This document shows, piece after piece, positions 22,665-63,845 of a stretch of DNA of 64,000 nucleotides. The stretch lies in sequence record KC801932; one strand, given 5' to 3'. The translations under genes were made by a program, and so were the position numbers. Below the pieces are notes generated by a model. That model searched no databases, was not told the origin of the DNA, and saw only the letters and a program-made list of their open reading frames with translations. Source of the stretch: Escherichia phage Lw1. Position 1 is the first letter of the stretch. Each line of letters opens with the position of its first letter.

Positions 22665-24165
22665 ACTTGCATCGACTCTGAAAACCTCAGAGAAGGAAGC
22701 AATTTTAAAACGTAATGCAAACAACCTATTGTTGAAAGAGATTTTCCGAATTACGTACACAAAACAGATTATGTTCTATGTGCGTAAGTTTCCCCAGGTG
22801 GACGGCAAACCAGGAACAACCCCGCTATCAAATGCAATCGCGGACCTGATGTCCGATTTAGCATCGCGGAAGTATACAGGTAATGCAGCCCGCGATCGCC
22901 TGATGGATATTGTGTCATCAGTAAACGAGAACGATCGCGAAGTGTTGCGCCGTATCATTAACCGCGATCTTGAATGTGGTGCGGGTACAACTCTGCCAAA
23001 CCGCGTATGGAAGAAACTTATTCCAGAACAGCCTCAATGCCTCGCTACGCCGTTTAGTGAAAAAGCCTTAAAACGTATTCGCTTCCCTGCTTACTCTCAG
23101 CTTAAAGCCGATGGTGCGCGTTGTATGTCGGATCTGTTAGAAGACCAGATTCGCAAAGCAACCCGCGCGGGAAATGAGTATACAGGTTTGGTTGATCTGG
23201 ATAAGGATTTGAAAAAGATCCGCGAATATCTGGGTTATGATGTTGTGCTGGATGGAGAATTGATTTATGTCCCTGGTGGAAAATCCGTTGAAGTTCCTGT
23301 GTCTCCTGTTACGTTTAGCCTTGCTGGGTTTATGGGCGATGACGATGATTCTGTTACTGACTTTGTGGCTGATGTTAGGCGGGAAGCCACCGAGGGAGAA
23401 AAACAGGAAGAGGCGAAACGCGAAGAAGGAAACGGAATCGTAAACAAATCCCTGAAAGGCACTATCAGCGACGAAGAACAACAGAACATCGTTTATGTTG
23501 TCTGGGACATCATACCGTATGAAGTTTATTATGGTGATGCTCCGAGTGTTCAGCCTTACAAAGATCGCTTGTCTATCCTTGATGGTGTTATCGCTGGCAC
23601 TGGTGTAACATCGGTTCAGTTGATTCCTTCTATCCTGGTGCAAACCATCGCGGAAGCAAAACAGGATTACAACAATTACCGCAATGACGGTAAAGAGGGT
23701 TCAATCCTGAAAAACGTTGATTTCGTCTGGAAGGATTCACGCGTTGCGGATCAGGTTAAGTTGAAGAACAAAACCCCGATCGAACTACGAATCATCGACG
23801 TATACGCGCACACCAAAGAACCTCATAAGGTCGGCGGGTTTGTTGTTGAGGACTTATCAGGAGAAGCCAGGACGAACACAGGTTCCGGTTTAACTGATAC
23901 AGACTACCGTTACGATGAAGACGGTGTTACCCGCGTGTATATCCCGTTAGACGAACGTGGAGAACTGGATCGCGAGTATATCATGACGAACAAAGATGAC
24001 TATATTGGCGCTATCGTCGAAATGGAAGTTGACGGACTCCAGAAGTCTAAAACGCGTAAGAAGGGCGAACCTGAATACAGTTTCTTCTTGCCAATCATCA
24101 AGAAGATTCGACGCGATAAGACGGAACCTGATGATATTCATGTGGTTTTTGCCGATCTGTTTTAA
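22642..24165 (+). CDS. 30: ATP-dependent DNA ligase
   Basis: 507 aa; N-terminus matches remembered T4 gp30 (MIL.ILNE.AS, LTY, LECGA, IPEQPQ); KADGAR adenylation motif. Confidence 0.9.
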   Translation: MILSILNELASTLKTSEKEAILKRNANNLLLKEIFRITYTKQIMFYVRKFPQVDGKPGTTPLSNAIADLMSDLASRKYTGNAARDRLMDIVSSVNENDREVLRRIINRDLECGAGTTLPNRVWKKLIPEQPQCLATPFSEKALKRIRFPAYSQLKADGARCMSDLLEDQIRKATRAGNEYTGLVDLDKDLKKIREYLGYDVVLDGELIYVPGGKSVEVPVSPVTFSLAGFMGDDDDSVTDFVADVRREATEGEKQEEAKREEGNGIVNKSLKGTISDEEQQNIVYVVWDIIPYEVYYGDAPSVQPYKDRLSILDGVIAGTGVTSVQLIPSILVQTIAEAKQDYNNYRNDGKEGSILKNVDFVWKDSRVADQVKLKNKTPIELRIIDVYAHTKEPHKVGGFVVEDLSGEARTNTGSGLTDTDYRYDEDGVTRVYIPLDERGELDREYIMTNKDDYIGAIVEMEVDGLQKSKTRKKGEPEYSFFLPIIKKIRRDKTEPDDIHVVFADLF

Positions 24166-24183
24166 ATAGCACTTTTTGTTTAA

Positions 24184-24239
24184 AAAGCCCTTGCATACGT
24201 GCGAGGGCTTTGTTATATTACACACATCGAAACGAAACA
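24184..24239 (+). promoter_or_regulatory. PeSL-like promoter cassette, copy 1: TTGCAT-17-TATATT with spacer hairpin and conserved leader
   Basis: -35 24191-24196, -10 24214-24219 (TGT extended -10), hairpin aaagccc/gggcttt; leader ACACACATCGAAACGAAACAG. Confidence 0.55.
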
Positions 24240-24256
24240 GACAAAAGGAACATCCC

Positions 24257-24529
24257 ATGCAAATCACTAAAGAACTCGAAGGCAAAGTAATCAACCTGAC
24301 ATACCGTGCGCGTTTTGAAAAACTGGCTAATGGTGGCGAATCTTTGGGTGAAGCGGTAGCGTTATTCGAAAGACTTCGGGTTAAACGTGTTGTTGATGGT
24401 TGGGTTATTGCTCTCCCTGTTGCAGATGAAGATAAAGCAGTATATGACCCAGTTGCCGATTCATGGGATATTGAAATCTGTTTAGTTAACGTTGAAGTAG
24501 AACTTTGCTTCGAAGAAGAAAATAATTGA
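24257..24529 (+). CDS. Hypothetical protein (90 aa)
   Basis: First ATG after cassette 1 with AAAGGAA RBS. Confidence 0.45.
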   Translation: MQITKELEGKVINLTYRARFEKLANGGESLGEAVALFERLRVKRVVDGWVIALPVADEDKAVYDPVADSWDIEICLVNVEVELCFEEENN

Positions 24530-24537
24530 AATAGTTC

Positions 24538-24590
24538 TTGTATTGTGTGTAGGGTAGTGTGGTATCTTACACACATCGGAACAAAGGAGA
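24538..24590 (+). promoter_or_regulatory. PeSL-like promoter cassette, copy 2 (divergent: TTGTAT-19-TATCTT, related leader)
   Basis: Leader ACACACATCGGAACAAAGGAGAG followed by ATG 24597. Confidence 0.45.
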
Positions 24591-24596
24591 GACACC

Positions 24597-24887
24597 ATGA
24601 AAAATAAAGAATACGACCCAGCAGAAATTAAAGAACGGTTATCAGTAGCAAGGAGATTCCTTGAATCTATCGATCCAGATAAACTTGGAAAACTCCCAGA
24701 CACGATTTGTTTAAATTGTGGTCGCTGTGTGTTGGTTGGTAAATGTTGCGACAACCCAAACATTGTCGTCATGGAACGGAAAGAAGTTTCGCCGGAAGTG
24801 TGGGATAAGATTCAGGAAATCATCAAAAACCCTCCAGAACCAACGAAACGTTTACGAGAACTTATGAGCAAGGAATACACGTTATGA
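24597..24887 (+). CDS. Hypothetical Cys-containing small protein (96 aa)
   Basis: AAGGAGAG RBS; CLNCGRC..GKCC cysteine cluster. Confidence 0.45.
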   Translation: MKNKEYDPAEIKERLSVARRFLESIDPDKLGKLPDTICLNCGRCVLVGKCCDNPNIVVMERKEVSPEVWDKIQEIIKNPPEPTKRLRELMSKEYTL

Positions 24888-55117: not shown

Positions 55118-55438
55118 TCAACAGGGATTATCGTTTTTTGATGGAAAAGTTAACTGGAACAAACGGTCATGCAACGCGTCGATACGTTCACACGCTTGCT
55201 TGAGTATCACTTTATCCCCCGCGCTGGTTGTCTCAATGCAGCCCAGTTCGTCCGCATCAATCGCGATCACATCATCCATCAGTGAAGCGAATATGTTCAC
55301 GTCAGGGTGAGTCAGTTCCTGTATTTCCAATATCATCCCGTCATGCTGGGATAACAGTTCGATGATATCTCTTTGCAGATCTCCCTGGTACGGGAAACCT
55401 GTTTGAAGATGGTTGATTATTCTTTCTGCTTTGGTCAT
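55118..55438 (-). CDS. Hypothetical acidic protein (106 aa)
   Basis: ORF downstream of terminator hairpin. Confidence 0.35.
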   Translation of the reverse strand: MTKAERIINHLQTGFPYQGDLQRDIIELLSQHDGMILEIQELTHPDVNIFASLMDDVIAIDADELGCIETTSAGDKVILKQACERIDALHDRLFQLTFPSKNDNPC

Positions 55439-55447
55439 ATTTCACCT

Positions 55448-55470
55448 ACAAAAAAGCCCCTTTCGGGGCT
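55448..55470 (-). terminator. Rho-independent terminator (agccccgaaaggggcttttt on minus strand)
   Basis: Perfect GC stem with tetraloop and T-run. Confidence 0.5.
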
Positions 55471-55476
55471 TCTGGA

Positions 55477-55740
55477 TTAAAGTTCACAGCAACGGCACAC
55501 ACCGTAATTGCTGAAAGGTTCTTCGCCGCTCAAATAAGCCCAGAAGTCGCAAGCCTGTTCAGCGGTTTCGAAGATTGCAGCCTCGTAGAAACCACGTTCT
55601 TCATTACCTGCTTCGTTGATATAAACCGGAGTCCAGAGGCTCGGTTTGAAGCAGTCAGAAACAACTACCCAACCATCTTTCGCTTTCATTGCTTCTTTAT
55701 TCGCTTCAACCATTTCCAGAATTTCGTTCAGTAAGCTCAT
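55477..55740 (-). CDS. Hypothetical protein (87 aa)
   Basis: ORF. Confidence 0.35.
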   Translation of the reverse strand: MSLLNEILEMVEANKEAMKAKDGWVVVSDCFKPSLWTPVYINEAGNEERGFYEAAIFETAEQACDFWAYLSGEEPFSNYGVCRCCEL

Positions 55741-55811
55741 TTTGAATCCCCTTTAATCCGTTTCGTTGTCTACGAGAGAGATATTATCATACTGGGGATT
55801 CATGTCAACAC

Positions 55812-56075
55812 TTATTCGAAACGAATCGTGCTATTTTTGAAAAACATTCCAGAGCACACAGCACCAGCGATCGGTTTACCGTTTACGCCCGTAGCCGTAA
55901 ATCCGGTTGCGTATGTATCCTTTTCAGAACAGGAAAACCAGCTATATCCTGTGAACTGAATATTCGAATACCCTTGCGCTTCCAGGATACGCTGTGCTTC
56001 TCGTTCGTCGGTACAGCTTGATTGCAATAGAACGAGAACCACAACCAGTAAGACACATCCAATAACTTTAAACAT
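55812..56075 (-). CDS. Hypothetical lipoprotein-like small protein
   Basis: Signal peptide ending LLQSSC (lipobox-like). Confidence 0.35.
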   Translation of the reverse strand: MFKVIGCVLLVVVLVLLQSSCTDEREAQRILEAQGYSNIQFTGYSWFSCSEKDTYATGFTATGVNGKPIAGAVCSGMFFKNSTIRFE

Positions 56076-56077
56076 AA

Positions 56078-56554
56078 TTACACTCTTTTTAAGTTGGTTT
56101 TACCTGCTTGAACCCAGCTAACACCTAAAGAACCACAACGGAAACCGCTGATAGCACCGAGACATACAGTTGTATGACTGAAAGTGTTAGGTAAATCGAC
56201 CTGGTTATCAGGAGAGATACCCAAATCATGTACGCTTACATCAGTTGCATACAGATAACCACCAGACACATACAGGGAATTGATCGAACCGAACGCGTCA
56301 TTAGGCCATTTAAAACGGTATTTGTCGCCCCATAGCTCAACTTCATACACCTGATATTCATCGAACAGAGGATCGTTACCCTTCGTTGCTGTATAAAGAG
56401 CACTACGCCATTCATACAGCTTTGCTTCAATGTCACTGACATTGATTTCTTTGCCAGCGCTTAAATCATCAAGCACTTGCTCAAGTTCGCGGATTGCTCC
56501 GCTTAATTCACAAGAAAGATTCATACAATACCCTCTTCTTTGAGCACTTCCCAA
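56078..56554 (-). CDS. Hypothetical protein (158 aa)
   Basis: ORF. Confidence 0.35.
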   Translation of the reverse strand: MGSAQRRGYCMNLSCELSGAIRELEQVLDDLSAGKEINVSDIEAKLYEWRSALYTATKGNDPLFDEYQVYEVELWGDKYRFKWPNDAFGSINSLYVSGGYLYATDVSVHDLGISPDNQVDLPNTFSHTTVCLGAISGFRCGSLGVSWVQAGKTNLKRV

Positions 56555-56880
56555 ATAAGTTTATCCAGGTGCATTAGGTTCCACATAACAGAGTCATACG
56601 AACCCAGCGAGCGGGAGTAAATTACACCCCATGAACGATATGCTTTTTGAAACTCTTCCGCGCTGTTTGTATCGCACGGCATATCATCACCAGAAGCGAT
56701 CAGCAGTTTAAACACCATCAGGCTGTTGAGCAGTTTTGAACTTGCGTCCTGTTCTCTCAGCTTAGACCAATACCGTTCGATAATCGCTTTTGCTTTCGGT
56801 TCAGTAATACGCCCATTACTACAACGTTCACGATACACATACATCAGTTCATCGAGTATTTCTGTCATAACACACCCCAT
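56521..56880 (-). CDS. Hypothetical protein (119 aa)
   Basis: ORF. Confidence 0.35.
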   Translation of the reverse strand: MGCVMTEILDELMYVYRERCSNGRITEPKAKAIIERYWSKLREQDASSKLLNSLMVFKLLIASGDDMPCDTNSAEEFQKAYRSWGVIYSRSLGSYDSVMWNLMHLDKLIWEVLKEEGIV

Positions 56881-57191
56881 TTACTTTTGATTCTGTTGCA
56901 TTCTTCCGCACACTCTTTTTCCGCAAGGATTTTGCGAACAACCGCGTTTCTGATTTTCCAGAGATAATCGATCATCTGCATATCTTCGGGAGTGTGATAA
57001 CCTTTCATATCGCATTCAAATACGATAGCATCGCGTTCTGACATTGCCATTATCGCGGTAGCCGAACAAATGGTCATCCCACTATATTTTTCAATCAACG
57101 ATTCCAGTGTACGCTTTTCTGCCGGAATGTCAACAGTTATCGGAACAGGACGGATTCTTGTAGTCGAATCGTCGAAGGATTGATAAATCAT
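56865..57191 (-). CDS. Hypothetical protein (108 aa)
   Basis: ORF directly downstream of radical-SAM-like gene. Confidence 0.35.
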   Translation of the reverse strand: MIYQSFDDSTTRIRPVPITVDIPAEKRTLESLIEKYSGMTICSATAIMAMSERDAIVFECDMKGYHTPEDMQMIDYLWKIRNAVVRKILAEKECAEECNRIKSKWGVL

Positions 57192-58342
57192 TTTAACTCC
57201 ACTGCATAAACATCGGTTTCGGGGGCTTTGTGTACGCGCATATCTTTACCACATACCGCATAAGCCGGACAGTTGCGACAACCGTTATGATCCGTGTTGC
57301 CTGTCAGTTCTTTACGGAACTGTTTTGTTTTCGGGTGTTCCCAGATATCTTTGATAAAATCATCGGCTTCAAGGACATTCAAACCTTCACCCCAGCCACC
57401 TTCAACCCAACGTTCGGTAAACGAGCAAGGGAAGAATTCGCCTTTTTCGTTGATGTAAGAGCTAAACATCGTCGCTTCACAATCTTCCGCATACTGCTTG
57501 TATTGTTCGAAGTTCGGGTGTCCCTCCATCGCTTCAACGAAAGCTGGGGCTGAACAGCTATCGAATCCAAATCCTACACCAGAATCAAGGCAGTATTCAA
57601 CAAGTTTTTTGTATTGTTCGCGGGTGACTGTATCCCAGTTCTTACCACGTCCCTTTTGTTTCAGACCCAGGAACACGATCGCGTTGACTTGTTTCAGGCG
57701 CGGATCATTACGCACAGCATCAACAACGGTAAACGCATCATCATAGGTCTTTGAGCTAACCATGAAATGTAGGTTGATTTGCTGTTGTCCTGCTTCTGCC
57801 AGGTTTGCGACGGAATCGAAAGCAACATCGAAGCCAGCATGTTTATAAACCGATACTGCAACAGCCCCAGCAACCGCCGCTAAACGCGCTGCAACGTCTT
57901 TTGATACATCAGCAATGGTAAGGTTCGGTACAATGCCTTTAGAACGCGCATAGGCCATCATATCGAACATATCAGGGTTTGTTTGTCCCTGTGCATCAGC
58001 ACCGAGTGCGCATTGGGTTAACCAGGGCATTTTATCAATGATGGATTTGAAAGAAGCAAGATCCATATTGTAGCCGTTCGGGTTATTGGACTTGTAACAG
58101 AAACCACACAGCTTACCAGCGGGGCCATTACATTTAGTTGTGATCTCGATATCGAGGATAAAAGGAAAATGACTATAAATAGGATCGTCAGCAGGAGTTT
58201 TGCCCCAAGTCATCATATGACCTGTTTTCATATCAAAATTAAAATTAACCTCTTCGGAACGATAGATTTTCTTTCCTTTCGCTTCCAGTAGAAGTCCAAC
58301 AGGCGTTTTGATATGTTTGGCGTTTACTTTAACGTGTCTCAT
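57188..58342 (-). CDS. Radical-SAM-like Fe-S enzyme (approx 384 aa), non-canonical Cys spacing
   Basis: TTKCNGPAGKLCGFCY (Cx7Cx2C) near N-terminus, further Cys cluster CRNCPAYAVC near C-terminus; start at ATG 58342 with AGGT RBS. Confidence 0.45.
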   Translation of the reverse strand: MRHVKVNAKHIKTPVGLLLEAKGKKIYRSEEVNFNFDMKTGHMMTWGKTPADDPIYSHFPFILDIEITTKCNGPAGKLCGFCYKSNNPNGYNMDLASFKSIIDKMPWLTQCALGADAQGQTNPDMFDMMAYARSKGIVPNLTIADVSKDVAARLAAVAGAVAVSVYKHAGFDVAFDSVANLAEAGQQQINLHFMVSSKTYDDAFTVVDAVRNDPRLKQVNAIVFLGLKQKGRGKNWDTVTREQYKKLVEYCLDSGVGFGFDSCSAPAFVEAMEGHPNFEQYKQYAEDCEATMFSSYINEKGEFFPCSFTERWVEGGWGEGLNVLEADDFIKDIWEHPKTKQFRKELTGNTDHNGCRNCPAYAVCGKDMRVHKAPETDVYAVELK

Positions 58343-58354
58343 AGGAACCTCATA

Positions 58355-59083
58355 ATGTATTACGTTTACAGAATCACAAATGTTATAGAGAACAAGCACT
58401 ATTATGGATCAAGAAAACCTAAAAAGTCAATGCTTGCTTCCGACGATTTAGGGAAACACTATTTCAGTAGTTCCCGTGATAGTCATTTCATCCAAGATCA
58501 GAAGGAAAATCCAGGACACTACAAATATAAAGTAATCGTATCGGGGTTGTCAAGGGAAAAGGCGATGAAACTTGAGAAAAGGTTACACGAAATCTACAAG
58601 GTGGACACGAACCCACATTTTTATAACAAACACATACACAACAGCGTTGATTTTTCATGTACACCAGAAACAGGAAAGAAGATTTCACAAACACACCAGA
58701 AATATGCAGCAAAGAAAATTTCAGAATCACATAAAAGGCGATTCAAGGAAGGTATAGCATCACATAAAGGAGAGAACAACCCACGATACAACGATCATCG
58801 GTCTTATGAAGAGATACACGGAGAAGAAAAAGCGGAGACTATACGCAAAGCACAATCTGAATCAAGAAGAGGAAAAGGCAATTCCCGCGCGGTTACGTGG
58901 AAATTTACTTCCCCTAATGGAGAAGAATTTTTAGTTGAAGGAGAATGTAAAAAGTTTTGCAAAGACAGAAATATTTCCATGCGTAAACTGAAAACCTATC
59001 TGGGTGAAGTCATCACAACATGCGATAAACCCTACTATATCTCTAAGAATACCGTAGGATGGAAATTAGAAAAGATTATTTGA
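58355..59083 (+). CDS. Free-standing GIY-YIG homing endonuclease (Seg-like)
   Basis: N-terminal YYVYRITNVIENKHYYGSRK GIY-YIG motif from ATG 58355 (AGGAA RBS); basic C-terminal DNA-binding region; sole plus-strand gene in minus-strand island. Confidence 0.7.
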   Translation: MYYVYRITNVIENKHYYGSRKPKKSMLASDDLGKHYFSSSRDSHFIQDQKENPGHYKYKVIVSGLSREKAMKLEKRLHEIYKVDTNPHFYNKHIHNSVDFSCTPETGKKISQTHQKYAAKKISESHKRRFKEGIASHKGENNPRYNDHRSYEEIHGEEKAETIRKAQSESRRGKGNSRAVTWKFTSPNGEEFLVEGECKKFCKDRNISMRKLKTYLGEVITTCDKPYYISKNTVGWKLEKII

Positions 59084-59330
59084 ATCTTCTTTTACGTTCG
59101 TCAGCCAATTCTTGTTTGTACGTTTTAATGTACTTCCCGTTAAGAATTCGAAGTTGCTGGAAAACTTTGTTGCACAAAGCACGTTTCGCTTTGTATTCTG
59201 GTGTATTGCGGATTGATTCGATCGTCATACCCATTTCGTTTTTAGGGTAAGCGCTCAACTCCCTGCCGATCTCTCTGTACCAGTTGCTTAACTGGTCACG
59301 CTTTGCTTTGTACTCTTCAAAAGTTAACAT
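59076..59330 (-). CDS. Hypothetical protein (84 aa)
   Basis: ORF convergent with GIY-YIG gene. Confidence 0.35.
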   Translation of the reverse strand: MLTFEEYKAKRDQLSNWYREIGRELSAYPKNEMGMTIESIRNTPEYKAKRALCNKVFQQLRILNGKYIKTYKQELADERKRRFK

Positions 59331-59644
59331 AACAATCTCCGGTTTAGTTTCTATGTGTGTAAGGTATCATTACCATACACACAAAGCAAGCTATATTTTC
59401 AAAATTAATCGGAATAATACAAAACAGAACACAGCAGAAAACACCCAACATACAACGAAGAACAACGCGATTCTTTTCAAATCATTCAAGGAATCTTCCA
59501 AAATCGGTTGCAACATCTTTCGGATCTGCTTCAAGTTCATACAGTTCACGAGCTAACGAACTTGGTTTGATATCACGCCCTAAATGGGCACTAACGGCAC
59601 TTAACCACTTAATGTAAGGATCGAACTTGCTCATGGTATGCCTT

Positions 59645-59896
59645 TTATTTGATGCGTACTGCGTTGAAAGCCTGGTTACGAAGTTCGAAAGCCTGTTCAA
59701 GCTGTTCCGTGGTGAACAGAGGGCTGTCAGTGTTCGTAGTGAAACTGCAAATCGTTTTGCTGTCTGCGTTGACTTCTTCAACAACGATATCATAACCCCA
59801 GATCCCGCTAAGTTCGCACTTCACATTCCGGTACTTGATGTATACCGCAACAACATCTTCTTTCTTATAATTCCGGCTTTTGTAGATGATTTCCAT
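59645..59896 (-). CDS. Hypothetical protein (83 aa)
   Basis: ATG 59896 with AGGAGG RBS just downstream of conserved leader. Confidence 0.45.
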   Translation of the reverse strand: MEIIYKSRNYKKEDVVAVYIKYRNVKCELSGIWGYDIVVEEVNADSKTICSFTTNTDSPLFTTEQLEQAFELRNQAFNAVRIK

Positions 59897-59899
59897 GAT

Positions 59900-59932
59900 A
59901 TCCTCCTTCGTTTCGATGTGTGTAATATAACA
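59900..59932 (-). promoter_or_regulatory. PeSL-like cassette, copy 5 (extended -10 TGTTATATT plus conserved leader; no -35 or hairpin)
   Basis: Minus strand TGTTATATTACACACATCGAAACGAAGGAGG; upstream half of cassette absent. Confidence 0.4.
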
Positions 59933-59967
59933 GATCAGGGTTATCGAGTTTTAGCAATTCGTGCTAA

Positions 59968-60246
59968 TTATGCCATTTTCTTAGCGATTTTCCAGGCGGC
60001 TTTGAACGCTGGAACGTCTTCAATCTCAACCCAGAAACCAGATCCGAAACCATCATTGTAGCAAGGACAACCGTCGCAGTAGTTTTCCCAGGTCATCACT
60101 TCACCACCAACAGAAGCACCAGTTTCCATAGCGCGTAACGCATCTTCAACTTTTTCCAGTTTTTCGGCGTTGTCGTCGTAAATGGTGAAGTACCATTTGC
60201 CGTTGTATTCGTTACCCAGTTTGATTGCTTCGCGAACAAGTTTCAT
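59968..60246 (-). CDS. Hypothetical protein (92 aa)
   Basis: Start at ATG 60246 (MKLVRE) downstream of cassette 6; CDGCPC motif. Confidence 0.45.
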   Translation of the reverse strand: MKLVREAIKLGNEYNGKWYFTIYDDNAEKLEKVEDALRAMETGASVGGEVMTWENYCDGCPCYNDGFGSGFWVEIEDVPAFKAAWKIAKKMA

Positions 60247-60261
60247 GATGATTTCCTTTTT

Positions 60262-60320
60262 GTCTGTTTCGTTTCGATGTGTGTAATATAACAAAACCCC
60301 TCACCATAGGCAAGGGGTTT
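60262..60320 (-). promoter_or_regulatory. PeSL-like promoter cassette, copy 6 (TTGCCT-17-TATATT, hairpin, full conserved leader)
   Basis: Minus strand: -35 60308-60313, -10 60285-60290; leader ACACACATCGAAACGAAACAGACAAAAAGGAAA nearly identical to copy 1. Confidence 0.55.
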
Positions 60321-60335
60321 CTTTAACAAAACGTG

Positions 60336-60584
60336 CTATTTTGTTTCTTCGAGGATTCGAAGGATTTCGGCGCGGGGGATCGGATGTTTTGCCAGCTCAC
60401 GGATCGCATGATCAAGATGCGTTTTACACATCAAGAATTCTTTCCCGCATTTGTGGCATGTCGCATACATATCACCATGTATACGGTCGATTCCATCCAT
60501 CACATAATACTTCATAAAGACGTAAGGTGTTCCACCATTCCAGCCCCGCGCAACGTGATTACACTCTCGATTGAACCATGACAT
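60336..60584 (-). CDS. Hypothetical protein (82 aa)
   Basis: ORF; CHKCGKEF zinc-ribbon-like motif. Confidence 0.35.
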   Translation of the reverse strand: MSWFNRECNHVARGWNGGTPYVFMKYYVMDGIDRIHGDMYATCHKCGKEFLMCKTHLDHAIRELAKHPIPRAEILRILEETK

Positions 60585-61186
60585 CAGTAATACCCTGGAT
60601 CTTTGAAGTGTGCTTTCATGTATCGCAGAATTTCATGAAGCATCTGGATTTGCTCATGTCCACGTTGTGAAGACATATCGATCATGACGCGAGTCATTTC
60701 GACGTTCTCCAGGCTTGATATACGCTGTTTTAAGGCGTTGTTTTCCTCTTCCAACTCAACCATACGGTCATATGCTTTGATACGCTCCAGAGGCATATCA
60801 GGGCGCTGTTTGAGGACACGGGCGCGGGACACTTCGCATTCGTGATTTGCTTTCCAGTGATCACGTTCACTAGCAATTTTATCGTTCTCCTGGTGTAGAC
60901 GTACAATCTCTTTAAGGAGGCGTTCAGTGGTATCGGGATCAAACGAAACCATGTATTGCATCAGGGATTGCAACCACAGATCCTCTAGCACCGACTGTAA
61001 CGCTTTAGGCCCAATAATGGTAAACGCGCGTTTCTTCATGTTGCTACCGAAACCGTAGTTAACGTTACCCGTAATCGAACCTGGTTGATTCGTACCATCC
61101 CACTTGTCACCGATAACAGGTTTTACTTGCTGAATAGCACGATTCAGTATTTCTAATTCTTCATCTAAAATCATTTCATATCCCAT
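60584..61186 (-). CDS. Hypothetical protein (200 aa)
   Basis: ORF with coiled-coil C-terminal half. Confidence 0.4.
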   Translation of the reverse strand: MGYEMILDEELEILNRAIQQVKPVIGDKWDGTNQPGSITGNVNYGFGSNMKKRAFTIIGPKALQSVLEDLWLQSLMQYMVSFDPDTTERLLKEIVRLHQENDKIASERDHWKANHECEVSRARVLKQRPDMPLERIKAYDRMVELEEENNALKQRISSLENVEMTRVMIDMSSQRGHEQIQMLHEILRYMKAHFKDPGYY

Positions 61187-61575
61187 AATTCATATTGTGA
61201 GCGAAGGATAGCGTAAAGGCTACCGATATGGATCGTGTCTACCGGACACTGGAACAGATCCCCGCGCATCATGTTAAACTCGATATCGTTACGTTCAACA
61301 TAGTTGCCGATCATTGATGTCCAGCCCATCACCAGGTTGTAACCATCTTCCGATAACCCATAAGCCAACTTAACCAAGATGCATCGCTTATCAGCCAGTT
61401 CTACGCGCATATGGGTACTGGTATGGGTGACCTTGTTCGGGAATCTGCGAAACATTTTAGTAAGGAGTTTTGCGGTTTCAATATTGAACGCCAGTTCTTG
61501 ATCCTTACTGGTCTGGTTATCATGACGACGATCCAGATATTTCTTCATTTTCGGATTCAGATTCACATGTTGCAT
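61171..61575 (-). CDS. Hypothetical protein (134 aa)
   Basis: ORF. Confidence 0.35.
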   Translation of the reverse strand: MQHVNLNPKMKKYLDRRHDNQTSKDQELAFNIETAKLLTKMFRRFPNKVTHTSTHMRVELADKRCILVKLAYGLSEDGYNLVMGWTSMIGNYVERNDIEFNMMRGDLFQCPVDTIHIGSLYAILRSQYELWDMK

Positions 61576-61784
61576 AATATATCCCTCACAGGTTTATAAC
61601 GTTCTTTTCCAGTGCCGTTGCATGAACTGCATTTTGGCGATCCGTGGTTATCATATCGCCCCGAACCATTACATGCAACACATTTCCGTAATTTCCAGCC
61701 ATACACGAACCGCATGTAATAATCGGTTCGTGCTGCCTTGCGCTCATGGAAGTTCATACTTTGTTGTAAACCTGAACAACCCAC
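61563..61784 (-). CDS. Small DnaJ-type zinc finger protein
   Basis: Two CxxCxGxG repeats (CVACNGSG, CSSCNGTG). Confidence 0.4.
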   Translation of the reverse strand: MGCSGLQQSMNFHERKAARTDYYMRFVYGWKLRKCVACNGSGRYDNHGSPKCSSCNGTGKERYKPVRDILCNM

Positions 61785-61957
61785 ATTTCGATGTTCGGCG
61801 CGTAAGTAACGTTTACCATCGGCATAGTGCGGTATTTGTAAGCGGCTTTGTACGCATCGAGTTCAGTTGGAACACAGAAAGAGAAACCGTTGTCATAACG
61901 TTCTGCGTTAGAAACTTCATAACCAACTACAGCAGCAATATTTTTGTTCATGTTCAT
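61754..61957 (-). CDS. Hypothetical protein (approx 67 aa)
   Basis: Start at ATG 61957 with AAAGGAAAA RBS downstream of cassette 7. Confidence 0.4.
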   Translation of the reverse strand: MNMNKNIAAVVGYEVSNAERYDNGFSFCVPTELDAYKAAYKYRTMPMVNVTYAPNIEMWVVQVYNKV

Positions 61958-61969
61958 GATGTTTTCCTT

Positions 61970-62030
61970 TCTGTGTTTCGTTTCGATGTGTGTAATATAC
62001 AAAAAAGCCCCTGCATTGCAAGAGGCTTTT
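61970..62030 (-). promoter_or_regulatory. PeSL-like promoter cassette, copy 7 (TTGCAA-16-TATATT, hairpin, conserved leader)
   Basis: Minus strand: -35 62016-62021, -10 61994-61999; leader ACACACATCGAAACGAAACACAGAAAGGAAAA. Confidence 0.5.
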
Positions 62031-62033
62031 GAA

Positions 62034-62993
62034 TTATTTTGGCAATTTTTTGATTAATGCTTGTAAGTCGTTGATTTTAGAAAACAGTTCATCGCTATAT
62101 CGCATCAATTCCTGTCTGCGTTTCGCAGCCCATGAAACCAATGTTTTTGCATCATCAACACCATAAGTGTATCCATCAGCGGATAGACGAATGATCGCAC
62201 GAGAACCGTAGTCAGCATTTGCATGTTCGATTAAAAACTTCACCGCTTCGAGAAGTTCGGAATCTTCCTTACTGACTAGAACACCGTTATCATCAGGAAA
62301 TTCGTTTTCATCATGAACACTTGCAAAATCAAGGTCGATATAATCATCCTGATTCACCTGGCGGCGCGTGTTGTCTTCGAGACTTTCAATCTGTGAAACC
62401 ATAGTTTCGACCGGATCTCTTTCAATTGGTTCTCTGTCGGTTCCTACTTCTTCCAGGAACATCAACAACCAACCAGGGATCAACGAATCAAAAGAACGCT
62501 GAATATGGCTTGCATGGTCACTACCCAGTATTTTCAACGCACAACCGTCTTTAGTAGCGGTATGGATATAGATAACATTACGGTCACGCATACGGCGGCT
62601 ACCATGAGAAAGATAGCGACGTAGCGAAGTGTTATGTCCATAGCGTCCCAGATCCAGGTTACACAGGGAATCAATAGCCCCACGGTTAGCAATCCGGTAG
62701 CGCGTACCAGTTTCAAATCGCAACTTTTCGGTAGTCACTGGTGTGAATTCTTCGTAAAGAATGTAATATTCTTTCGGGATCTCGCGATCAAGAACTCTCA
62801 ATACACCATTCTCCGAAGGAGTGAGCACAGAACGAACATTACCGTTCGCATCGCAATGTACCTGCATGACTTGAGGATAATAGAACCCTTTAGCCTTTAG
62901 GGTGTATTCATGCAAACGACTCAAGCGCTTTCTGTAGTACCATTTACCAGTAACAAACGGGGTTGCAGATCCTGCTAAACTAATTGGTTTCAT
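62034..62993 (-). CDS. Hypothetical protein (319 aa)
   Basis: Long ORF ATGA-coupled to DUF262-like gene. Confidence 0.4.
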   Translation of the reverse strand: MKPISLAGSATPFVTGKWYYRKRLSRLHEYTLKAKGFYYPQVMQVHCDANGNVRSVLTPSENGVLRVLDREIPKEYYILYEEFTPVTTEKLRFETGTRYRIANRGAIDSLCNLDLGRYGHNTSLRRYLSHGSRRMRDRNVIYIHTATKDGCALKILGSDHASHIQRSFDSLIPGWLLMFLEEVGTDREPIERDPVETMVSQIESLEDNTRRQVNQDDYIDLDFASVHDENEFPDDNGVLVSKEDSELLEAVKFLIEHANADYGSRAIIRLSADGYTYGVDDAKTLVSWAAKRRQELMRYSDELFSKINDLQALIKKLPK

Positions 62994-63523
62994 TTTGTGG
63001 CCTTATACATTTCAATTACGCGTTTCATGTGCTCTTGTGATTGAGGCACACCAGCGAAGTTCAATTTAATGAAGAATTCAAGACGATCCTTTTTGGTGCA
63101 TTCATCCAGCCCCAGGGCAGGTAATGACAAGTTTTCAAAGGCTCGTTGTTCATGTCGTTGCATATCATCCCAGAACAGACGGGAACCATCCGGCATAGGA
63201 ATCCCAATCTCACCCTCATAGACTTTGATGATAGTCGTCAGGCGTTGTTTCCCGTCGATTACTTCTACCCAATGGGATTCATTGAATTCACTATCAACGG
63301 CAATCGCGATAATACCACATGGGAAACCAGTGATCAACGTAGTCAGGAATTCATCTTGTTCTTTCTGCGTCCACACGTAGGGGCGCTGATACGATGGATT
63401 CAGATCCAGATCCTTATTTTTCCACCAGTGAATATAACTTCCAACCATGATCGCATGTTCACGACTTTTGAAAGTTATCCGTTCACGAATTCGGTTACGG
63501 GCTGGGATATCATCTTTAGACAT
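62990..63523 (-). CDS. DUF262 / ParB-like nuclease domain protein (177 aa)
   Basis: VIDGKQRLTTI (DGQQR-type motif) and upstream QRPYVW block. Confidence 0.5.
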   Translation of the reverse strand: MSKDDIPARNRIRERITFKSREHAIMVGSYIHWWKNKDLDLNPSYQRPYVWTQKEQDEFLTTLITGFPCGIIAIAVDSEFNESHWVEVIDGKQRLTTIIKVYEGEIGIPMPDGSRLFWDDMQRHEQRAFENLSLPALGLDECTKKDRLEFFIKLNFAGVPQSQEHMKRVIEMYKATK

Positions 63524-63845
63524 TATGGATCACCCACAGCAATAAACAAGAATTGATAACCGCGAAAGTGGTACAAATTGCAGCAAAAACACGCGCATTA
63601 TGAACATCAGTTTTCAGTTCTGCGATCTCTTGATCCTTTTCGCTTTCGAATTCGTCGCGGGTTCCATAGTAACCAGGATCAGCAGGGGTAGCAATACGCA
63701 CAGCATCTTTTTCTACAATAGTCGCATAACCATTGTTTACATTTGTTGCACCGTACCAATCACCACGGTCATTGTTAATGATCAGGTGTTGTCCCTTTTC
63801 ATTGTGCTTTGCTTCACCAGTGACAACTACACGTTTACCGTTCAT
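63516..63845 (-). CDS. Hypothetical protein with C-terminal TM anchor (109 aa)
   Basis: ORF; C-terminal hydrophobic helix. Confidence 0.35.
   Translation of the reverse strand: MNGKRVVVTGEAKHNEKGQHLIINNDRGDWYGATNVNNGYATIVEKDAVRIATPADPGYYGTRDEFESEKDQEIAELKTDVHNARVFAAICTTFAVINSCLLLWVIHNV

Follow-up and report, generated by a model that had tools for sequence, protein, structure and literature searches.

Phages RB49 and phi1 carry, clustered in their variable regions, repeated intergenic elements known as PeSLs ('promoter-early stem-loop'), which combine a sigma-70-like early promoter with a stem-loop terminator, an A/T-rich upstream tract and a ribosome-binding site (PMC2839356). In reporter assays the RB49/phi1 elements have both promoter and terminator activity, and they recombine into mini-circles (Arbiol et al. 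2010, PMC2839356). That paper listed five subclasses, and PeSLs, degraded 'half' copies included, were later described in T4/PST and KVP40/nt-1 (Comeau et al. 2014, PMC4122927). Here we analysed a 64,000-nucleotide (nt) stretch of Escherichia phage Lw1 (sequence record KC801932; hereafter the window), in which a first-pass annotation had proposed that three minus-strand promoter cassettes between 59,900 and 62,030, each driving a different small open reading frame (ORF), form a shuffling hot-spot. We put a probability of roughly 0.75 on the reading that these cassettes are PeSL-type units of a T4-like phage of the RB16/RB43 group, shuffled by recombination. What we observed directly is their anatomy, their stable hairpins, their copy number and, among relatives, hybrid cassettes and differences in whole units. 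Modular shuffling of PeSLs is a phenomenon of an already described kind, and it is the clade that is new for it: in the literature searched we found no PeSL analysis of the RB16/RB43 or KP15 clade, only a remark on PeSL-like sequences near RB43 gene 43.

The best DNA matches to the region came from T4-like phages of the RB16/RB43 group (Pseudotevenvirus) at ~94% identity, among them Citrobacter phage Xman (94.6% identity, whole query) and RB16, GAP161 and CfP1 (~93–95% identity across 74–80% of the query). Because coverage among the ~175 matching phage records, whose hosts are Klebsiella, Enterobacter, Cronobacter, Citrobacter and Escherichia, spans 86% down to 1%, the locus is highly variable within the RB16/RB43 clade.

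All three cassettes of the first-pass annotation proved real. An exact 23-mer, TATATTACACACATCGAAACGAA, occurs on the minus strand at 59907–59929, 60268–60290 and 61977–61999, within the units we designate P5, P6 and P7, and again on the plus strand at 24214, with diverged copies at 24563(+), 32945(−), 44611(−) and 59347–59362(−). The last of these belongs to a fourth cassette, P4′ (59331–59400), of a second structural class, which the count of three had missed. The window thus holds eight copies, four of them inside 2.7 kb. The 23-mer had no match in 100 shuffles, its chance expectation being nil, and the clustering of four copies has a Poisson probability of ~4e-4 for a single interval and ~0.01 when all intervals are allowed for. 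An independent repeat finder returned a four-copy family at 59335, 59898, 60259 and 61968, and aligned P6 with P7 at 76% identity over 62 nt; adjacent copies are direct repeats with 26 nt perfectly identical. Related genome-length sequences (~144–180 kb, viral collection) each carry three to four copies of the exact 23-mer.

The two full copies share one architecture. P7 (61958..62033, minus strand) consists of a hairpin (62030–62003, −13.9 kcal/mol) followed by a U-tract, a −35 box (TTGCAA, 62021–62016) lying within the hairpin 5′ arm, a −10 box (TATATT, 61999–61994) at a spacing of 16 nt, a start region, and an A/C-rich leader with the ribosome-binding site AAGGA that extends up to the ATG at 61957. 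P6 (60247..60335, minus strand) likewise has a terminator-like hairpin with a U-tract (60321–60293, −19.3 kcal/mol), a −35 box in its 5′ arm (TTGCCT, 60313–60308), an extended −10 element (TGtTATATT, −10 box 60290–60285) at a spacing of 17 nt, a start region and a leader with a ribosome-binding site. Downstream of the TATATT box the two have in common an invariant start region, TTACACACATCGAAAC, of 16–23 nt, which runs on into a near-identical leader, and both leaders are unstructured (0 kcal/mol each). An A-run lies upstream of each hairpin, and AAGGA or GGAGG stands 6–9 nt before the ATG. A consensus scan recovered both promoters and both hairpins, and the hairpins of P7, P6 and P4′ have z-scores of −2.9 to −4.4. 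Hairpins of the P7/P6 type (class 1) fold in every one of the 26 distinct sequences drawn from the window and 13 relatives (−11.5 to −22.9 kcal/mol); as read from these folds, inner-stem and loop sequence varies between copies while the stems stay paired. Folding was done per sequence: a consensus fold of 20 aligned cassettes gave four pairs only, because variable loop lengths misaligned the 3′ arms. An Rfam scan of 58900–62300 found no known RNA family, the one sub-threshold match (a Leu leader, 20 bits against a gathering threshold of 50) being the P7 terminator hairpin. A perfect-stem terminator scan of the whole window returned plain, promoter-less terminators, for example at 55471 and 52332, and was left out of the counts, since the cassette hairpins, which contain G-U pairs and mismatches, escape it.

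P5 (59897..59967, minus strand) is a degraded copy that retains the upstream TAGCAC..TTGnTAAA motif, an extended −10 box (TGtTATATT, 59932–59924), the invariant start region and a short GGAGG leader. It was described earlier as truncated, without −35 box and hairpin, and this we could confirm: the 3′ arm is gone and no −35 box stands at a usable spacing. P5 aligns to P6 and to the copy at 24214 on either side of an internal gap of ~17 nt, to which the loop, the −35 box and the 3′ arm have been lost. The gap agrees in part with the suggestion of a recombination scar, but every relative with a P5 has it in truncated form, in Pseudotevenvirus and Slopekvirus alike, and the truncation is therefore old, not a recent scar. 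P5 probably still works as a promoter.

The fourth cassette, P4′ (59331..59400, minus strand), heads the ORF at 59330–59076 and represents class 2, with weak promoter boxes, a stem-loop and the leader TTACACACATAGAAAC followed by GGAG. Its −35-like TTGCTT (59389–59384) and −10-like TACCTT (59366–59361) are separated by a 17-nt spacer, and a TGTGTGTAGGGTA/TACCTTACACACA-type stem-loop, of 13 bp in relatives and with one internal mismatch in the window copy, runs from just past the −35 box to the start site, at −17 kcal/mol and with no U-tract. The start region of P4′, TTACACACATAGAAAC, matches that of the other cassettes. In RB16/CfP1 two pairs of the class-2 stem have been exchanged by compensatory double changes (T-A to G-C and G-C to A-T), and one of these exchanges lies in the start region, which is otherwise invariant; pairing has been kept through these changes, and the structure is therefore under selection. 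The class-2 stem would be whole only in read-through transcripts, where it might serve in RNA processing or attenuation, or it might act as a DNA structure. A paralogue of P4′ lies at 24530–24597(+). There, 35 kb off and on the opposite strand, the tandem layout is repeated (24160–24600): a class-1 cassette, a small ORF, a class-2 cassette and a small ORF with Cys pairs, the class-1 copy having the upstream TAGCAC..TTTGTTTAAA motif common to P6 and P5.

These features closely parallel PeSLs. Both stem-loop positions seen here, over the −35 box and across the −35 to −10 span, are among the 2010 subclasses; the units occur in several copies, concentrated in a variable region among small genes with no assigned function; and the degraded 'half' copies described elsewhere have a counterpart in P5. 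Sigma-70-like boxes with a spacing of about 17 nt are found in P7 (16) and P6 (17), are weak in P4′, and are reduced to an extended −10 element in P5, as a sequence match. The differences are that the clade is another one (RB16/RB43 Pseudotevenvirus and KP15 Slopekvirus), that the consensus here has a −35 TTGCnn within the hairpin 5′ arm, a −10 TATATT, the invariant TTACACACATCGAAAC and a near-identical leader, and that promoter and terminator activity and mini-circles were measured for RB49/phi1, whereas the present cassettes are known from sequence alone. The predicted early promoters of RB43, which precede novel ORFs, have G at −33, either G or C at −36 and, upstream, a tract rich in A; a middle-promoter class was not found in that phage, which also lacks a MotA homologue (Nolan et al. 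2006, PMC1524935). The cassettes agree with these promoters in their sigma-70 likeness, in both base preferences (−33 and −36) and in the A-rich tract, but the earlier work gives a promoter logo only and leaves aside the fused terminator, the conservation of the leader and any part in recombination. Since the mapped RB43 early promoter rki has TTGACA/TAAAGT boxes (PMC3486835), the cassette family is a subset of early promoters. By their sequence, the cassette promoters would belong to the early class.

The blocks of genes behind the cassettes differ from one another. P7 was thought to head a single small ORF; the ORF is real, but it is the first of a five-gene operon (60336..61957, minus strand) whose start and stop codons overlap and which ends at the P6 terminator. 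The operon encodes proteins of 67 amino acids (aa; 61957–61754), 64 aa (61757–61563, with a CxxCxGxG zinc-finger motif), 134 aa (61575–61171), ~196–200 aa (61186 or 61174 to 60584) and 82 aa (60584–60336). P6 heads a single gene (59968..60246, minus strand) whose 92-aa product matches Pfam DUF5417 (E = 1.6e-47), is named Frd.1 in the RB16 annotation and contains the Cys cluster CDGCPC. Behind P5 lie genes of 83 aa (59896–59645) and 50 aa (59634–59482), both on the minus strand, followed by what may be a small hydrophobic ORF ending at 59391; behind P4′ lies a gene of 84 aa (59076..59330, minus strand; PHROG 7560). Two of the three first ORFs had been called Cys-rich, which holds for the P6 gene, but the other motif sits in the second P7 gene. 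The first ORFs of P5, P6 and P7 are, as proposed, mutually unrelated (PHROG families 7982, 1254 and 7818), and all cassette-headed genes fall in separate PHROG families lacking a function assignment. The 64-aa protein of the P7 operon resembles the DnaJ-type CxxCxGxG repeat (Pfam PF00684, E = 3e-4, under the curated cutoff) and weakly matches a PHROG annotated 'anti-termination protein Q-like' (E = 4e-6).

We compared the locus in 13 phages of Pseudotevenvirus and Slopekvirus, mapping cassettes and ORF families and aligning each genome to the window; the gene-order map was redone after a first version carried spurious antisense ORFs. Gene content and order are not identical among these relatives. 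Units differ by presence and absence, breakpoints occur at cassettes and some fall inside them, which supports the hot-spot reading of the first-pass annotation. In UPEC03 a hybrid cassette has its left part from P6 (upstream context, hairpin and TGTTATATT) and its right part from P5 (GGAGG leader and 83-aa gene); the switch lies inside ACACACATCGAAACGAA, which P6 and P5 have in common, and the Frd.1-like gene between them is gone. In leB the upstream context of P7 is joined to P6 at the hairpin 5′ arm with all five P7 genes absent, and beyond the junction the sequence is 99.1% identical to P6 and its gene in other phages. As single contiguous matches these deletion junctions are rare, the first being found in 1 of 171 matching records and the second in two phages, leB and Banach, among 172 records, and they are therefore probably derived events. 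In Maroon and BL02 the P6 leader is interrupted by an additional ORF of 110 aa that brings a hairpin-less promoter of its own, and a 24-nt stretch of the leader, TTACACACATCGAAACGAAACAGA, stands as a direct repeat at either end of the insert; the inserted gene is also found in unrelated phage groups (siphophages, Aeromonas phages and a Pectobacterium phage). In GuL6 an intact P6 is followed by an ORF of 95 aa that does not resemble the Frd.1-like gene, is unique within the clade and has its closest homologues in Klebsiella siphophages (61% identity). Insertions, deletions and replacements between close relatives, with crossovers within the element, are thus a further likeness to PeSLs (UPEC03, leB/Banach, Maroon/BL02, GuL6).

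RB43 is without P5 and the 83-aa gene; P4′ and the ORF preceding it are absent from KPN11i, Rpl1, Maroon and leB; and the last gene of the P7 operon (82 aa) is absent from CfP1, RB16 and UPEC03. Upstream of P7, a 319-aa gene (62034–62993, minus strand) reaches full length in the window, Xman and CfP1 alone; the Slopekvirus version has 304 aa and 64% DNA identity, and seven relatives have a ~100-aa gene matching its C-terminal 85 residues (PHROG 15764 versus PHROG 10932). The right-hand breakpoint of this difference coincides with the 5′ edge of P7. At P5 we looked for a sharp recombination boundary of the 83-aa gene and instead found identity declining gradually within the gene, mainly over 59850–59600, a divergence that takes in the start of the next gene. 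The best DNA match to the P5 genes (59480–59900) in the phage collection is 85%, with flanks 94–99% identical to known phages, which suggests a fast-evolving gene or an allele from an unsampled lineage.

The cassettes could instead be no more than conserved expression signals, with breaks seen there because only intergenic recombinants survive, the joins themselves arising by illegitimate recombination or through flanking coding homology in co-infection. We consider this unlikely, although part of the evidence points its way. Over the interval 62990–59076, 11 of 23 breakpoint classes fall within 20 nt of a cassette; cassettes with this 20-nt margin make up 12% of the interval (P ~2e-5, or 4e-4 with three P7-edge variants merged). 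By our own count from the alignments, cassette junctions carry ~2.25 breakpoint classes each, against ~0.9 for other junctions, which speaks against passive signals. Passive signals also leave unexplained the seamless hybrids of UPEC03 and leB, in which the switch falls in shared repeat sequence, and the Maroon/BL02 insert lying between 24-nt leader repeats. What speaks for passive signals is that each segment of the window has a different nearest relative, from which general homologous exchange between co-infecting phages is clearly frequent. The segment 57191–55300 is closest to RB16 (99.1% overall, single genes 98.8–100%), the body of the radical-SAM gene to RB43/GuL6 (96%), the endonuclease gene to a Slopekvirus (98%) and the P7 operon to Xman/CfP1 (94–99%). 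Across 55300–63600 as a whole, the closest relative switches segment by segment, making a mosaic that crosses genus boundaries. At 57186–57191, a cassette-free junction, a gene of ~97–100 aa, present in most relatives between the radical-SAM gene and its neighbour, is missing from the window and from Rpl1.

Several observations weigh against the reading as shuffled PeSL-type units. Breakpoint classes are found in some relative at seven of the eight cassette-free gene junctions of the interval (for example near 62988, 60588, 59647 and 59091), which also fits passive signals and leaves part of the plasticity unaccounted for by cassettes. A number of indels are bordered by a cassette on one side only or on neither (the 82-aa gene, a 57-aa ORF and a 68-aa ORF replaced by an endonuclease gene), and clean cassette-to-cassette junctions are seen in just three or four events. 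The whole region is a gene-by-gene mosaic, of which the cassettes cleanly account for a subset of events only. The hexamers of P4′ are weak, with 3/6 matches each to the E. coli consensus. In addition, the record of phage KP27 marks similar sites as 'putative middle promoter', by motif finding alone. The middle promoters of T4, which depend on MotA, have a Mot box, (a/t)(a/t)(a/t)TGCTTtA, centred at −30 and 11–13 nt from the −10 box. Class-1 copies read cCTTGCnn, not TGCTT, and P4′ has TGCTT but 17 nt from its −10 box. We rejected the middle-promoter interpretation on the misfit of this spacing, on the motif-finding origin of the labels and on the lack of MotA in RB43 (PMC1524935), the window itself not having been searched for motA.

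One feature is left unexplained by the PeSL model: the start region and leader are conserved beyond what a promoter needs. In two genera and at several separate loci, the invariant stretch and the leader vary less than the coding DNA that flanks them. It is conceivable, if rather doubtful, that the stretch from the −10 box to about the first 12 transcribed bases (TATATTACACACATCGAAAC; start region ACACATCGAAAC), together with the leader, is a recognition element for a phage factor that co-regulates accessory genes. Such a factor could be a regulator or an RNA-binding protein that replaces MotA/Alt functions lacking a counterpart in RB43-type phages; equally, the stretch could serve as the target of a protein that helps exchange to occur at the cassettes.

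Repeated hairpin elements that bound single-gene units also call to mind the sites of a dedicated, integron-like site-specific recombinase, or miniature transposable elements, and protein binding to GGGG..CCCC stems has been the subject of speculation (PMC2839356). Integron cassettes with their attC hairpins are likewise small single-gene units bounded by hairpin-forming repeats, with circular intermediates as a possible further parallel, but the units here differ in having their own promoters, terminator-like hairpins and crossover points that vary between events. The RB16/RB43 phage group is not known to have a recombinase or integrase of this kind, the window itself not having been searched for one. 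Each event has its own point of exchange (leB, hairpin 5′ arm; UPEC03, −10/start region; Maroon, leader), which fits homology-based exchange, not a fixed site; with no target-site duplications seen and each unit bearing its own promoter, a dedicated recombinase or transposable element has very little to recommend it.

The first-pass annotation had also drawn attention to a GIY-YIG homing endonuclease gene beside the cluster. The ORF (58355..59083, plus strand, 242 aa) is indeed a predicted free-standing homing endonuclease (PHROG 314 'homing endonuclease', E = 2.4e-24), but the GIY-YIG label derives from an N-terminal motif alone, and the gene abuts that of the fourth cassette, not P5: the P4′ gene converges on its end with an 8-nt overlap. 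The N-terminus, VYRITNVIENKHYYGS, is GIY..YIG-like and aligns, if tentatively, with IYQIKNTLNNKVYVGS of I-TevI at E = 0.006 in a single comparison, and one relative's record names the protein 'GIY-YIG domain-containing'. Searches returned no Pfam match (E up to 5), no NCBIfam match and no PDB sequence match. With the free-standing GIY-YIG homing endonucleases of T4-like phages (Seg proteins; I-TevI catalytic domain) it has in common a GENN repeat as in the I-TevI linker, tentatively this N-terminus, and an intergenic free-standing gene, sporadic among close relatives, with adjacent sequence co-transferred; it differs in matching no curated profile and in being a neighbour of the cassettes, not a component of them.

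Could the endonuclease drive the local mosaic, with double-strand-break repair co-converting flanks and so yielding the cassette-unit differences? The gene is sporadic (~18 clade records; relatives without it have a 68-aa ORF at the same position), and it moves as a block with the first 183 nt of the divergently transcribed radical-SAM/SPASM gene (58160..58342, minus strand): together they are 98–99.5% identical to the endonuclease-carrying Slopekvirus Rpl1, CPRSA and BL02, across genera, and no DNA match to the 183 nt turned up in genomes devoid of the endonuclease. The remainder of the radical-SAM gene is closest to RB43 and GuL6 (96%), and the first ~61 residues of the radical-SAM protein in the window equal those of Rpl1, differing from the versions in endonuclease-less genomes. 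Co-conversion at this locus is real, and the pattern looks like typical homing with a co-converted tract, which may protect against cleavage or remove the cleavage site. The tract, however, has one end inside the radical-SAM gene and the other close to the 84-aa gene, and UPEC03, leB, Maroon and GuL6 show cassette events and all lack the endonuclease, so the enzyme is not needed for them; as a driver of the cassette differences we judge it highly improbable. Antisense within the endonuclease gene, just upstream of the radical-SAM start, is a near-consensus sigma-70 promoter (TTGACA-18-TATATT, 11/12 matches, 58524–58553, minus strand), which may restore radical-SAM transcription after the insertion interrupted the operon.

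For the PeSL-type cassettes we propose the following model. A full copy (P7 or P6) would place four signals within ~80–90 bp of intergenic DNA: an intrinsic-terminator hairpin and U-tract that would end the upstream transcript; a sigma-70-type promoter, its −35 box in the hairpin 5′ arm and its −10 box TATATT, with predicted early activity; the invariant start region; and an unstructured A/C-rich leader with a ribosome-binding site. Early in infection, host RNA polymerase would start ~7 nt past TATATT, and since each cassette holds all four signals, each block of genes would be an insulated unit, expressed independently by host RNA polymerase soon after infection. P5 would be an old degraded copy that still provides an extended −10 promoter, and P4′ a second structural class with its stem-loop across the promoter. 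The very active homologous recombination of T4-like phages would cross over between the direct-repeat copies, deleting, inserting or replacing the units between them, possibly by way of excised circles.

The finding leaves the current view of T4-like genome evolution unchanged. It extends the modular-shuffling model of PeSLs to the RB16/RB43 and KP15 clade, a group of over 170 sequenced phages, many being therapeutic candidates for use against Klebsiella, Enterobacter, Cronobacter and Citrobacter. The natural recombinants resolved here at sequence level, both the hybrid cassettes and the insert flanked by leader repeats, support homology exchange inside cassettes. As compact, insulated expression units, the cassettes could be of use in phage engineering, and in phages of this clade they mark likely points at which accessory genes are gained and lost.

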